Virus record (IMG/VR): IMGVR_UViG_2917393062_000003
Location: 1 to 57,747 of that record
Length of the DNA: 57,747 nucleotides
From: a virus
Taxonomy: Duplodnaviria; Heunggongvirae; Uroviricota; Caudoviricetes
Reading direction: 5' to 3' (one strand)
The notes under the pieces: generated by a model
Told to the model about the DNA's origin: nothing
Databases searched by the model: none
What the model saw: only the letters and a program-made list of their open reading frames with translations
Shown: positions 53,389 to 57,747 of the stretch, one piece after another
Layout of the letters: every line of letters starts with the position of its first letter
How positions within the stretch are numbered: the first letter of the stretch is position 1
Program-made: the position numbers and the translations under genes

Positions 53389-53978
53389 TGGATTCGTTAC
53401 AGGATGATTATACAAAATTGTTGTATGGCCTGATGCCGCCGGGACCTGCATGGTCAGATACCGACGGTGTACTTGACGGTCTGGCGCCGTCGCTTGTGCG
53501 TGTACATCAGCGGGCTGATGAACTGGTGATTGAAATCGATCCCGGTCAGTCAACAGAGCTGATTGAGCGTTATGAAGAATTGTATGGTTTACCTGATTCC
53601 TGCTCCCCTGTCGGGACTCAGACATTACGCCAGCGCCAGCAACGGCTGGAAGCAAAAGCTAATGTGGCTGGTGGCATAAATGAGCAGTTCTTCCTGGATC
53701 AGCTTGAGGCACTGGGATATACCGACGTGAAGATCGAACAATTCCAGCACCTGGATGCAAGCCCCGATCCGGAATGGGGAGATCGCTGGCGTTATTTCTG
53801 GCGCGTGACGTTGCCGGTGGATGCCGGTGCTCAGTGGCAGACATGCACGGATGCCTGCAACACACCGATCCGGACGTGGGGCGATACGGTTGCGGAGTGC
53901 GTGATTAATAAATTATGTCCGTCGCATACCGTCGTTTTATTTTCCTATCCAGATGAGGATGAAGATGCACAGGATTGA
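53388..53978 (+). CDS. tail protein, Mu gp48/YmfQ-like (DUF2313-type)
   Basis: 196 aa; N-terminal MDSLQDDYTKLLYGLMPPGPAW. Confidence 0.55.
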   Translation: MDSLQDDYTKLLYGLMPPGPAWSDTDGVLDGLAPSLVRVHQRADELVIEIDPGQSTELIERYEELYGLPDSCSPVGTQTLRQRQQRLEAKANVAGGINEQFFLDQLEALGYTDVKIEQFQHLDASPDPEWGDRWRYFWRVTLPVDAGAQWQTCTDACNTPIRTWGDTVAECVINKLCPSHTVVLFSYPDEDEDAQD

Positions 53979-55086
53979 TACGCTGACAGCGGTAAAAGAT
54001 AAGTTTGGTCCGGGCAAGAACGGATTTACTGACGGAAATCTTCGCACAGGACGTCTTGCCACCTGGCTGAACAGTGCCATGTGGGATGCCATTCAGGAGG
54101 AAATCTGTGGTGTCATTGAGAAGGCAGGGATAGAACTGAATAAAGAAGAACACGATCAGCTCTATAAAGCCATATTATTACTGGTGGGCGGTGCAATTAA
54201 CGAAGAGGCATTGCTGATCAAAAATAATCTTTCGGATGTGAAAAACAAGAATAAGGCTGTTGAAAACCTCGGATTAAAACCCACGGTCGAAAAGGCAAAA
54301 AATGCCGTTCAGCGCGATGGTGACACCATGAGTGGTGATTTGACGTTTGAAAATGACGCAATACTTGCGTGGATTCGAAATACAGATTGGGCAAAGATTG
54401 GGTTTAAAAATGATTCGGATTCAGACACCGATTCATATCTGTGGTTTGAAGCGGGAGATAATGGAAACGAATATTTCAAGTGGCGGAGTAAGTATGGAAC
54501 TACAACCACGGACCTGATGAATCTCAAGTGGGATGCGCTGTATGTTCTTGTTAAAGCCCTTTTCAGTAGTGAAGTAAAAATATCTACACTCAATGCACTG
54601 AGGATATTTAATTCATCTTTTGGCGCCATTTTTCGCCGTTCTGAAGACAGCCTGCATATCATTCCCACACGAGAAAACGAAGGGGAAAATGGTGATATTG
54701 GGCCGCTACGACCATTTTCGATTGACCTCAGAACTGGTCGCATAACTATGGGGCATGGATTAAATGTTGGTGGACAAGTGGTTCCGACAGACTACAGCAA
54801 TTTCGATGCTCGTTATCAGCAGATAAGAAACACCGCATCAAAAGCAGCAAATGGCTGGTTTAAGGATGAGGCCACGGGCGTCATTATGCAATGGGGGTAT
54901 CTGTCAAACGCCTCATCCGGCCTGACTTTTCCGATAGCGTTTCCGTCAGCATGCGCCAGCATTACCATAACTAACGCACACACACGTGCAAATTACAGTA
55001 TTGCGTTGAACTCGCTGTCAAATACAGGTGCAACGTTTTACAGCGAAAACAACGGGCATATGTATTGGACAGCGGTGGGATATTAA
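53965..55086 (+). CDS. tail fiber protein (first fiber)
   Basis: about 373 aa from MHRIDTLTAV after baseplate genes. Confidence 0.65.
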   Translation: MHRIDTLTAVKDKFGPGKNGFTDGNLRTGRLATWLNSAMWDAIQEEICGVIEKAGIELNKEEHDQLYKAILLLVGGAINEEALLIKNNLSDVKNKNKAVENLGLKPTVEKAKNAVQRDGDTMSGDLTFENDAILAWIRNTDWAKIGFKNDSDSDTDSYLWFEAGDNGNEYFKWRSKYGTTTTDLMNLKWDALYVLVKALFSSEVKISTLNALRIFNSSFGAIFRRSEDSLHIIPTRENEGENGDIGPLRPFSIDLRTGRITMGHGLNVGGQVVPTDYSNFDARYQQIRNTASKAANGWFKDEATGVIMQWGYLSNASSGLTFPIAFPSACASITITNAHTRANYSIALNSLSNTGATFYSENNGHMYWTAVGY

Positions 55087-55088
55087 TA

Positions 55089-55520
55089 ATGGCGATTTAT
55101 TTCAGTCCATCAACAAACGGTTTTTATAATTCTGACCTTCAGGGCGATTATGAAAACGCTGGAGCGTGGCCGGATGATTTAAAAGAAATTGCTGATGCCG
55201 ATTATCTGAATTTGCTGGATGGTCAGGCCTCCGGGCTTATTATTCTGTCAGATGAAGACGGATATCCGGTATTAAAAGAACCCGTAATTAACTGGCAGCA
55301 GAAAGCAGAAATGCAACGCCAATGTCTGCTGGCTGAAGCAAAGGACGTCATCTCCGACTGGAAAACCGAGCTAGAGCTGGGAATCATCAGCGATGTAGAT
55401 AAAGCCCGTCTGACACAATGGATGGCATATATCAAATCACTGAAGGCACTGGATTTAAGCAAGGTCAGTGATGAGCCATCCTTTGATTTAATTCCGTGGA
55501 CGGAAAAACCAGTCATGTAA
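55089..55520 (+). CDS. tail fiber assembly protein (first)
   Basis: start MAIYFSPSTNGFYNS with SD GGTGGG. Confidence 0.65.
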   Translation: MAIYFSPSTNGFYNSDLQGDYENAGAWPDDLKEIADADYLNLLDGQASGLIILSDEDGYPVLKEPVINWQQKAEMQRQCLLAEAKDVISDWKTELELGIISDVDKARLTQWMAYIKSLKALDLSKVSDEPSFDLIPWTEKPVM

Positions 55521-55567
55521 AACAATAACGGTCGCTTCCAGGAGACCGTTTTCAGTTCAGAGGCTCT

Positions 55568-57184
55568 ATGTCTGTATTAATCAATGGTGCGCTGATTGAT
55601 GGCGCAGGCATCCCCATGTCCGGGTACCACATTATTTTGAAATCCCGGGTAAACACCTCAGAAGTAGTGATGTGCACTAAGGCTGATGTGGTGACCGGAA
55701 ATAACGGTGAATATTCGTTCGAGGCGCAGGTCGGAAAATACTGCGTTTATCTGAGACAGGACTGGCGAGACGAGCACTGTGTTGGCGACATTGCTGTATA
55801 CGATGACTCGCGGCCCGGCACGCTGAACGACTTTCTGACTGCTCTCGATGAAGGCGACCTGAAGCCAGATGTTGTTAAGCGGTTCGAAGCACTGGTGACG
55901 CAGGCGCAGCAGAGCACGGAAGCGGCAGCGGAAAGCGAACGACAGGCCGGGCAACACGCAGCTGATGCGCAGAAGATTAAGGGTGATTGCCAGACGCTGG
56001 CGGATAACGTACAGAAGAATGCAGAAGCTGTAGCAGCCAGCAAACAGCAAGTTGAACAGCTGGCATCAGAAGTTGGGCTGAACGCCGGGCAGGTGCAGCA
56101 GGGCGTGCAGAGCGTTACTGATGCGGTAAAAAAGGCGGAGCAGGCAGCAAAGGATTCTGCTGACAATGCCACAGATTCGAAAAACAGTGCTGACAATGCG
56201 GCACTGAGCGAACAGAACGCACAAAAACACGCGCAGAAAGCTGAGCAACACGAGCAGCAGACCAAACAATATGCGCAGGATGCAGCGACCGCCGCAGAAT
56301 CAGCAGAGAACGCCAAAGGCGAAATTGACGAAATTCTGGATGGCGGCTATCTCAAGATAAAAAACAACTTTCAGGAAATTGTTGATGCTGGCCCGTCAGC
56401 ACTGGCTCAGGCCCAATGGAATTTACAGATTTCCGGGGTGAAAAATAAACAGGTAATTACCACCCCTTATACATGGCCATCCAGAACTGAGTATGAACAA
56501 AGGGTGCATCTGCCACTCGCCGGGGCTTACGGATTTGGCTACACATTTGAAGACCAAAGCCAGGGGCGAATAAATTTTAATGAGGGCTATACGGCGTCGT
56601 GGTGGTCACAGTGGGCGAAACCTGGTCGTTATTACGTCAGCGCCAGTGATAAAGAATACCTCGCACCTGAAGGAGACAGGTGGGGGATTGTTGATTTGCT
56701 GTGGCTTAATGGCAGCGGATATAACGATGCTTCGAAGGTTCTGAAGATACTGGCTTTTTACGATGATGACGGATACTTGCACATCGGCAGACGTATTGCT
56801 CAGAGCAACTCGAAAATAAGCTGGCGTAAACTCGCATCACTGCTGGATGTCCGGCAGATGTTGTATTCGTATATTTACAATAATTATAACAGGGAGTGGC
56901 GAGACCCGGAACTGGGAGGTTTAATTCTGGCGTCATACCAGGGAACCGCTGACGGCGACACAAATATTAAAGTATCCCGTGGTCAGACTTACCCCGGCTC
57001 ACGACTTGCACCTGTGGCGATAGAGTGCCCGTTCACCCCGTCTGGTACGTATGCGGCAACACCGCGATTCTATATTACCGGCTGCAAGAGCAAATCACTC
57101 CCCGGAACCTATATTTCACTGTCTGGAGCACCCACAACATACAGCGACCAGGCTTTTGTGGCGCTATTCATGAGGATTGCATGA
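55568..57184 (+). CDS. side tail fiber protein with lambdoid Stf-type N-terminal domain (second fiber)
   Basis: 538 aa; N-terminus resembles recalled Rac StfR, e.g. YDDSRPGTLNDFLTAL; Ala/Gln-rich coiled-coil middle. Confidence 0.7.
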   Translation: MSVLINGALIDGAGIPMSGYHIILKSRVNTSEVVMCTKADVVTGNNGEYSFEAQVGKYCVYLRQDWRDEHCVGDIAVYDDSRPGTLNDFLTALDEGDLKPDVVKRFEALVTQAQQSTEAAAESERQAGQHAADAQKIKGDCQTLADNVQKNAEAVAASKQQVEQLASEVGLNAGQVQQGVQSVTDAVKKAEQAAKDSADNATDSKNSADNAALSEQNAQKHAQKAEQHEQQTKQYAQDAATAAESAENAKGEIDEILDGGYLKIKNNFQEIVDAGPSALAQAQWNLQISGVKNKQVITTPYTWPSRTEYEQRVHLPLAGAYGFGYTFEDQSQGRINFNEGYTASWWSQWAKPGRYYVSASDKEYLAPEGDRWGIVDLLWLNGSGYNDASKVLKILAFYDDDGYLHIGRRIAQSNSKISWRKLASLLDVRQMLYSYIYNNYNREWRDPELGGLILASYQGTADGDTNIKVSRGQTYPGSRLAPVAIECPFTPSGTYAATPRFYITGCKSKSLPGTYISLSGAPTTYSDQAFVALFMRIA

Positions 57185-57747
57185 TGCAAGTGAAAGAAAT
57201 CACAAATCCCCGCTACACCGAATCCGGTGCGATTGACTGCGAGGTGCTTTTTGAAGGGATGGATGACCCCATCCCCTACACAGCCACGGCAGAAGATACA
57301 GCAGAGACAGGCCAGCACATCTGGCAGGAACTACAAAGTGGCAAATGGGGCGAAATCGCCCCGTTCACCATTACACCTGAACTTATCGCAGCGGCAAAGG
57401 ATGCCAAAAAACGAGAAATTGAGGCATGGCGCACAGAACAGGAGGCGCAGCCGTTCACGTTCGAATGGAACGGTCACACATGGAATGCTGACCCCGACTC
57501 ACTGGCCCGTCTCTATCCGGTGGTAATGGCTGCGAAATCTGATACAGCACGAACCGCCCTTGCGTGGGGCGACGCTGATAATCAACAGGTGAAACTGTCA
57601 ATGCCGGAACTGGAAGAACTGGCGACAGCAATGGCGCAGGCACAGGTCGATCGCAACGATGAGATTTATCAACGCCAGCGGGAGATGAAGGAAGAACTGA
57701 ATAACCTGGATGATTTGAGTTCTATTCGAGCATTTGGTGTTTGCTAA
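57181..57747 (+). CDS. tail fiber assembly protein (second, Tfa-like)
   Basis: start MMQVKEITNPRYTESG; ATGA overlap with fiber gene. Confidence 0.65.
   Translation: MMQVKEITNPRYTESGAIDCEVLFEGMDDPIPYTATAEDTAETGQHIWQELQSGKWGEIAPFTITPELIAAAKDAKKREIEAWRTEQEAQPFTFEWNGHTWNADPDSLARLYPVVMAAKSDTARTALAWGDADNQQVKLSMPELEELATAMAQAQVDRNDEIYQRQREMKEELNNLDDLSSIRAFGVC

Follow-up and report, generated by a model that had tools for sequence, protein, structure and literature searches.

Two tandem tail-fibre cassettes at the late-operon end of a phiP27-like Escherichia prophage, the second with an Stf-type collar anchor and a DUF4376 partner

Background

When a temperate phage carries two tail-fibre genes, each with a helper gene of its own, the two receptor specificities may be used in alternation, by inversion of a DNA segment, or together on one particle. 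This question is raised by a 57,747-nucleotide (nt) stretch of caudoviricete DNA, IMG/VR record IMGVR_UViG_2917393062_000003 (the window, positions 1 to 57,747), in which the fibre region, positions 53965-57747, is the late-operon end of a phiP27-like prophage. A first-pass annotation of the window had placed two complete fibre and assembly-protein pairs here in tandem, the first of Mu type and the second with an N-terminus like that of lambdoid side tail fibres (Stf) and a Tfa protein of its own, and had read them as a dual-fibre arrangement and not as a G-segment switch. The follow-up reported here upholds that reading and replaces the second Tfa with a protein of another family. We give a probability of roughly 70% to the explanation in which the late operon would end with two independent receptor-binding cassettes, co-transcribed and used together instead of alternately, the second of them a horizontally mobile, portable accessory module.

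Results

Four intact genes form two fibre cassettes

Four intact open reading frames (ORFs), all on the plus strand, lie in the fibre region and were called identically on the source contig (GCA_004745115.1, PDHZ01000026.1). Within each pair the start and stop codons abut or overlap, and 47 nt separate the pairs. All four proteins matched PHROG tail families, the best family running end to end on fibre 2 and the DUF4376 protein and covering residues 1-129 of Tfa1 and 1-271 of fibre 1. Domain searches of both fibres returned Gp34_trimer and Gp53-like_C for fibre 1 and PF08400 for fibre 2, and the E-values of the predicted domains in the four genes are far beyond chance (Table 1). The tandem, same-orientation pairs described by the annotation are thus real, and by the Pfam and PHROG matches the second pair is as intact as the first and is not a pseudogene.

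The Mu-type character claimed for the first pair was borne out by the match of fibre 1 to the Mu tail fibre S in the PDB (5yvq/9ki1, E 8e-73) and by a Caudo_TAP helper (2e-23). In fibre 1, a constant N-terminal part of 100 amino acids (aa; aa 1-100, 53965-54264) leads into a shaft and then into a C-terminal knob of pyocin type, and the C-terminal ~75 residues (aa 287-361) matched the knob of the R1/R2 pyocin fibres in the PDB search. By blastp, aa 79-278 are 56% identical to residues 146-345 of Mu S and aa 23-116 are 32% identical to residues 31-121. Over the N-terminal 100 aa, identity is 95% with phiP27 L54 and 50-60% with e14 StfP. The helper, Tfa1, belongs to the Caudo_TAP family of Mu U and lambda Tfa, its C-terminal half being 40-42% identical to Mu U/U'. 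The start codon of fibre 1 lies 14 nt inside the gene for the Mu gp48/YmfQ-family wedge protein, which is 97% identical to phiP27 L53 and 56% identical to e14 YmfQ; the gp47-type protein encoded before it has 98% aa identity to phiP27 L52 and 31% to Mu gp47.

A search of the whole fibre region for sigma-70-like promoters found none. We considered the spacer hairpin between the pairs as an internal terminator and rejected it, as its folding energy of -10.7 kcal/mol (z = -0.67) was no better than that of shuffled sequences. Because no promoter-like site was found and the spacer hairpin is no better than chance, fibre 2 would be co-expressed with the rest of the late operon.

Table 1 Features of the fibre region and of the island in the terminase gene (positions in the window)
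Feature	Position	Strand	Basis or description
Baseplate wedge protein, Mu gp47 / Baseplate_J	52306..53388	+	Pfam Baseplate_J 3.8e-53
Baseplate wedge protein, Mu gp48 / YmfQ family	53388..53978	+	Pfam Phage_Mu_Gp48 3.5e-25
Fibre 1, Mu S type, primary tail fibre, 373 aa	53965..55086	+	Pfam Gp34_trimer 3e-11, Gp53-like_C 7e-14
Vestigial gix/pix-like half-site	54261..54285	+	GTTGAAAACCTCGGATTAAAACCCA, encodes ENLGL; constant/variable junction of fibre 1
Tfa1, assembly protein for fibre 1, 143 aa	55089..55520	+	Pfam Caudo_TAP 2.2e-23; phrog_188 6e-38
Spacer between pairs	55521..55567	+	47 nt; weak hairpin then UUUUC; GAGG ribosome-binding site before fibre 2
Fibre 2, 538 aa	55568..57184	+	PF08400 phage_tail_N, E 1.4e-56, profile positions 1-134 of 134
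Fibre 2 anchor, aa 1-93, lambda-Stf-type collar domain	55568..55846	+	PF08400; lambda Stf 9e7m/9mgh E 8e-15
Fibre 2 shaft, ~aa 102-265, Ala/Gln/Glu-rich predicted coiled coil	55871..56362	+	AF2 helix 102-133, after a flexible linker (aa 92-101); remainder inferred from composition
Fibre 2 distal receptor-binding region, aa 266-538 + stop	56363..57184	+	Sequence homologues
DUF4376-type fibre chaperone, 187 aa	57184..57747	+	Pfam DUF4376 (PF14301) 3.1e-18, residues 71-176; phrog_1141 1.7e-89 full length
Tyrosine integrase	23318-24607		Island
DUF927 primase	27988-30111		Island
HK97-type capsid protein	32139-33284		Island
Portal	33806-35110		Island
Complete TerL	36471-38132		Island

Fibre 2 has a distinct subtype of the Stf collar domain

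The likeness of the fibre 2 N-terminus to Stf stood at the level of the domain family, with a full-length PF08400 match; within that family the anchor is, judged by its sequence, a distinct subtype of the Stf collar domain, 41-43% identical to lambda Stf and 24% identical to gp40 of the myovirus XM1 (PDB 7kjk, E 4e-5 in the sequence search). An AlphaFold2 (AF2) model of residues 1-135 had a predicted local distance difference test score (pLDDT) of 73 overall and 80-93 within the domain. The predicted fold is a six-strand beta sandwich (strands 2-8, 21-29, 33-42, 48-54, 56-63 and 69-77) with a short helix at 86-89; a linker of low confidence (92-103) then leads to a long helix (102-133). When this model was searched with Foldseek, the only significant matches were the Stf collar of Ur-lambda (9e7m_Ta, template modelling score, TM, 0.84, 41% identity) and the N-terminal domain of XM1 gp40 (7kjk_A3, TM 0.6, E 4e-6).

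The anchor is under purifying selection. Pairwise ratios of nonsynonymous to synonymous change (dN/dS) had a median of 0.11-0.13, also within contractile-tail contexts, the pairs not being phylogenetically independent.

Beyond the shaft, the distal region of fibre 2 is rare, with just 8 homologues among 5.8 billion proteins. It is 96% identical to that of a fibre from an unrelated pPE4-like prophage in E. coli JNEC-KY178 (87-96% over the whole fibre), and its final ~110 aa (56852-57181) align as a semi-conserved tip. This distal domain recurs, joined to a third collar subtype (MPQLKGVIK...), in a second fibre that follows a Caudo_TAP gene in another Mu-like prophage. Since one distal domain is found behind different anchor subtypes, anchors and tips are shuffled independently.

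The helper of fibre 2 is a DUF4376 protein

The Tfa that the annotation had assigned to the second fibre was not found in the helper gene, which has no Caudo_TAP (PF02413) match and instead encodes a protein of DUF4376 type (3e-18), 87% identical to phiP27 L57. Its ATG overlaps the TGA stop of fibre 2, and its TAA is the final three bases of the window. Across 47 loci, which are not phylogenetically independent, the identities of its N-terminal 65 aa co-vary with those of the final 30 aa of the fibre (rho 0.61); against the anchor, over the same number of loci, there was no such co-variation (rho 0.20).

DUF4376 proteins have been found experimentally to be needed for fibre function in Alteromonas phage V22 and in Campylobacter CJIE1. 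Like V22 gp27, A5 gp9 and the gene after the H-fibre of CJIE1, the present protein has a C-terminal DUF4376 domain and is encoded directly downstream of a fibre; the likeness of the Escherichia phrog_1141 protein to these proteins is one of domain and gene position only. By this analogy, the DUF4376 protein would help to fold fibre 2 and would represent a chaperone class other than Tfa.

The flank leaves no place for an inversion switch

In the invertible systems of Mu (G segment, S-U / S'-U', with Gin) and e14 (P segment, with PinE), two fibre tips, each with a helper, are also found, and the present locus shares more with them than that: fibre 1 is a homologue of Mu S, its N-terminus is like that of e14 StfP, and a gix-like core lies at the same junction. 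The genes of e14 run jayE-ymfQ-stfP-tfaP, then inverted tfaE-stfE, then pinE. As the same baseplate lineage thus uses a PinE switch in e14, and as fibre 1 keeps the core AAAACCTCGG at the usual constant/variable junction, we considered a switch of the Mu G or e14 P type with its invertase and second crossover site immediately beyond the window.

The flanking sequence refutes this. On the source contig, the DUF4376 stop codon is followed by a hairpin, ~250 bp and then potB, potA, pepT, roxA, phoQ, phoP and purB, and homology to K-12 sets in again at the 3' end of potB, 252 nt beyond the stop; the ~250 bp between the last stop and potB therefore leave no room for an invertase. In tblastn searches with e14 PinE and Mu Gin, no Gin/Pin homologue was found in the window or the 10 kb beyond it (E >= 5.9), and positions 52000-57747 contain neither long inverted repeats nor an inverted copy of either pair. 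With no Gin/Pin homologue and no inverted duplicate in window and flank, there is no G-segment switch, as the annotation had held from the window itself; nothing in the downstream sequence contradicted it. The two pairs lie on the same strand, and an invertase stood beside the cassette in 0 of about 115 related loci. Unlike the Mu and e14 segments, this locus lacks an invertase, an inverted second copy and a second crossover site, and its second fibre is a complete protein with an unrelated anchor of its own, not an alternative C-terminus on a shared constant part. The inversion switch is excluded, and we regard its probability as vanishingly small.

The half-site core is identical to that of Mu gixL/gixR, its right half is degenerate, and the site is kept in phiP27. 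Neither the pattern AAACCNNGGTTT nor the e14 pix 21-mer, with 3 mismatches allowed, found an inverted partner for it in the window, which also contains no full e14 pix or Mu gix site. The half-site is likely a relic of invertible fibre systems like the e14 P segment, or a recombination hotspot common with them. The baseplate lineage is common to e14 and this prophage, and has arrived at two specificities by two routes, inversion in the one and tandem arrangement in the other.

The hairpin that follows the last stop codon is an 11-bp, GC-rich structure (z = -3.4; contig locus positions 12181-12432). The prophage is integrated at the potB/potC junction. The host flanks are 90-95% identical to nearly all of 5,426 complete E. 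coli genomes (about 94%), with three records at 95-99%; given a flank identity of about 94%, the host is probably a non-coli Escherichia.

The locus is a mosaic relative of phiP27

By synteny and sequence identity, the prophage can be assigned as a phiP27-like temperate phage with a Mu-type tail and an HK97-type head. Its order of fibre genes recurs in the Stx2e phage phiP27 (NC_003356), whose record is a complete phage genome; there L54-L57 encode a fibre, a Caudo_TAP protein, an Stf-N fibre and a DUF4376 protein, with L58 and attR next in line. By megablast, window positions 39367-54331, from the portal to ~codon 122 of fibre 1, match phiP27 positions 24040-39003 at 95-97%. The protein identities are 96% for the portal, 99.8% for the capsid and 95-98% for gp47, gp48 and the fibre 1 N-terminus. 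Nucleotide similarity stops at 54331, inside fibre 1, and beyond this point conserved and replaced blocks alternate. Both fibres keep their N-terminal parts (for fibre 2, 86% nt and 89% aa identity), and the DUF4376 gene is conserved as well (86% nt, 87% aa). In fibre 1 the distal part has been replaced along with the Tfa (38% identity over half the Tfa), and in fibre 2 the shaft and binding domain (538 vs 490 aa). The conserved blocks of cassette 2 are 86% identical in nucleotides, compared with 95% for the chassis, and the replaced fibre 1/Tfa1 block has a G+C content of 0.41-0.47 against 0.52-0.56. A further difference from phiP27 is the integration site, here the potB/potC junction named above.

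This comparison also bears on whether the second pair could be an accidental neighbour, left behind by an adjoining decayed lambdoid prophage. The anchor family is best known from lambdoid Stf proteins, and when the anchor was searched against a phage database, 291 of the 295 matching records had less than 60% identity, the matches listed being mostly lambdoid siphoviruses. Such an origin does not fit a 47-nt spacer between pairs of the same orientation, a window without lambda tail genes, or ORFs that are intact and under purifying selection, and an identical junction is found in phiP27, with attR behind the cassette, and in dozens of independent contigs. Spacing and junction recurrence exclude the accidental neighbour, which we consider highly improbable. 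The four-gene arrangement was already on record in phiP27 and is common in Escherichia prophages; most of the 80 viral contigs described below show it too, and DNA of the window-type anchor was detectable in 144 of the 5,426 E. coli genomes; what is new here is the combination of fibre tips.

Cassette 2 occurs on unrelated tails

To place cassette 2 among tail types, 80 viral contigs with close relatives of the fibre 2 anchor (62-89% aa identity) were classed by tblastn and Pfam. The largest class was pPE4-like contractile (38 contigs), followed by Mu/phiP27-like (17 contigs), and in both the cassette stands after the primary fibre and its Tfa. P2-like tails formed two classes, one with the cassette after H-G (P2-like A, 7 contigs) and one with it directly after gpD, ~6 kb from the primary fibre (P2-like B, 9 contigs; 25 nt after gpD). 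Four contigs were lambda-like (J-lom-Stf-Tfa) with the cassette after the first Stf and Tfa, and the tails of the remaining 5 contigs were unclassified. No invertase was found in any of the 80 anchor-bearing contigs. In the four lambda-like contigs (L007, L073, L079 and L083), the first Stf has a lambda-type anchor, ~41% identical to that of the window, and a Caudo_TAP Tfa, while the second has a window-type anchor (71-85% identical), with DUF4376 following in L007 and L079, where the locus reaches that far.

Identical 95-aa anchor sequences are common to pPE4-like, Mu/phiP27-like and P2-like A tails, and between these chassis they differ by 0-15 nucleotides, all synonymous. In a whole-genome comparison with pPE4, no similarity was detectable in the head, neck, sheath, tube or baseplate proteins, and the fibre module is the only part that the window prophage and pPE4 share. 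A literature search found no paper discussing PF08400 fibres on contractile tails and none on pPE4. The deposited 'Actinobacillus phage vB_Apl-pPE4' (PP818812.1) has Rac-like early genes (RecT, exoVIII, Kil, DicA and YdaT), and in baseplate J and the adjoining baseplate protein it shares 99% identity with a prophage of an E. coli chromosome; its stated host looks doubtful.

Cassette 2 is polymorphic for presence and absence. In a search anchored on gp48, with relatives taken from viral contigs (a single-protein gp48 scan of genome contigs gave no confirmed relatives), the cassette was present in nearly all contigs with gp48 96-99% identical, and the group at 92% had the fibre and Tfa only. As it is present at 96-99% gp48 identity and absent from the 92% group, cassette 2 is optional within one chassis. 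In that 92% group (L113-L126), gp48 and the primary fibre gene are ~1.5 kb apart.

The spread of the cassette over unrelated tails can be read in two ways. It is conceivable, if on balance somewhat doubtful, that cassette 2 is a plug-in module for receptor binding, independent of its chassis and with an anchor able to function on tails of unrelated types. If it is displayed on all of these chassis, the collar must either close round a six-fold structure of general occurrence, the neck for instance, or bind the sole components that these phages have in common, the exchangeable primary fibre or its Caudo_TAP protein; in both cases it would be a universal adaptor by which a second host specificity could be added. 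A serious rival, which we nevertheless hold to be improbable, is that the cassette is expressed but not displayed on this chassis, either as a passenger of the late-operon end spread by recombination or as a gene set serving co-resident lambdoid phages or the capsids of tail-borrowing satellites. Identical anchors on chassis with no further structural protein detectably in common (in the direct comparison of the Mu/phiP27-like with the pPE4-like type) are hard to reconcile with a specific docking site, the extreme end of a prophage is typical of accessory cargo, and truncated fibre copies (125-297 aa) occur in a few loci. A mere passenger would be less expected to have an anchor under strong purifying selection in contractile-tail settings (dN/dS 0.11), to be closely built into the late operon in each of the five gene arrangements and to keep its cognate chaperone, and a related collar domain does attach to the myovirus XM1.

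Discussion

How two cassettes could work on one particle

In the reading that we prefer, with two cassettes used together, the conserved N-terminus of fibre 1, of the Mu S / e14 StfP type, would plug into the gp47/gp48 baseplate wedge, and its swappable distal part would be folded by the Caudo_TAP protein. Fibre 2 would form a trimer composed of the collar domain, a linker, a coiled-coil shaft and the rare distal binding domain, folded with the aid of its DUF4376 partner, and would be displayed alongside fibre 1 when expressed with the late operon. The virion would then carry two receptor specificities at once, which could broaden or speed up adsorption, by analogy with lambda Stf plus J and with the side fibres of T5.

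Several of the results above support this two-cassette reading: the mosaic relation to phiP27, in which anchors and chaperone are conserved and distal parts swapped; the fold match of the anchor to the domains by which lambda Stf and XM1 gp40 attach to the virion; and the tight or overlapping gene junctions, the co-variation of chaperone and fibre tip, and the requirement for DUF4376 proteins in V22 and CJIE1. In Ur-lambda, twelve collar domains from four trimers ring the junction of gpV and gpM, the reported contacts with both proteins being made through the beta4-beta5 loop (PMC12617516), and the order of collar domain, linker and coiled coil in lambda Stf (PMC12617516) is that of fibre 2. 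The likeness to lambda Stf (9E7M/9MGH) extends to a six-strand sheet, a helix, a linker of ~10 residues and a coiled coil, in an accessory fibre that ends the tail operon and has a chaperone gene downstream; the differences are a sequence identity of 43%, a beta4-beta5 loop that reads VGK here and YGQ in lambda, a contractile tail, and DUF4376 in place of Caudo_TAP. In the myovirus XM1, eighteen N-terminal domains of gp40 bind the neck proteins gp4 and gp5 (PMC10457771). Fibre 2 resembles XM1 gp40 (7KJK) in that an Ig-like N-terminal domain leads into a trimeric coiled coil with a binding domain at the far end, and XM1 is a simple Mu-like contractile phage; it differs in that the identity is 24%, that the distal part of gp40 is a tailspike, and that docking to gp4/gp5 has been demonstrated for XM1 only.

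Other results weigh against two fibres working together on this particle. The tail is sheathed (sheath gene 44687-46183), and homologues of lambda M, L, I and J are absent from the window (gpV was not among the queries); with these partners absent and the tube covered by the sheath, the gpV/gpM docking site used in lambda is unavailable here. The neck proteins encoded at 43396-43959 and 43956-44519 had no PDB sequence match to XM1 gp4/gp5, although such proteins diverge past sequence recognition. The place of fibre 2 on a contractile-tailed particle is predicted from its genes, and the AF2 model of its distal 284 aa, built from a 9-sequence alignment, was too poor to use (pLDDT 42.8). Lastly, the gene for the large terminase subunit (terL) is split, and the prophage may therefore not make infectious particles of its own.

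The collar may dock on the neck, as does XM1 gp40, at the baseplate periphery, or on the complex of primary fibre and Tfa. Of these, we looked most closely at a neck (collar) fibre whose rings of N-terminal domains would clasp the head-tail connector and the tail terminator in the manner of XM1 gp40. On a sheathed tail the neck is an exposed, narrow six-fold ring; gp40, with a homologous domain and a coiled coil, binds gp4/gp5 in XM1; and the contacts reported for lambda run through one loop, a limited interface that would suit independence from the chassis. On the other side, the anchor is much nearer to lambda Stf than to XM1 gp40, the neck proteins of the window lack a sequence match to gp4/gp5, and the gene for fibre 2 adjoins those for the baseplate and fibres. 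Neck docking thus seems to us rather unlikely, and we put it forward as a tentative proposal.

An island in the terminase gene

The large-terminase gene of the prophage (region 22185-39385) is split into an N-terminal part at 22209-23132 and a C-terminal part at 38651-39382, with an island of ~15.4 kb between them. In addition to the genes listed in Table 1, the island encodes a Bro-N protein, SSB, a prohead protease, an HNH endonuclease and terS. No tail genes were found among the island ORFs scanned, and no flanking direct repeat of at least 25 nt was found around it. The island looks like a capsid-forming satellite that has inserted into the terminase gene of the very prophage on whose tails it would depend, and the tail genes of that prophage remain intact.

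Conclusions

The present prophage is a routine variant of the phiP27 architecture, and what it mainly adds is another combination of fibre tips. Its wider interest is that one baseplate lineage would present two fibre specificities either sequentially, by inversion, as in e14, or simultaneously, through tandem cassettes, as in phiP27 and this prophage. The lambda-like prophages with tandem Stf fibres raise the question of how two collar subtypes would share one tail. Should this anchor indeed function both with and without a sheath, it would pose the structural question of how a lambda-type collar docks on a contractile tail, and it would offer a useful handle for retargeting phages, tailocins and phage-derived delivery particles.

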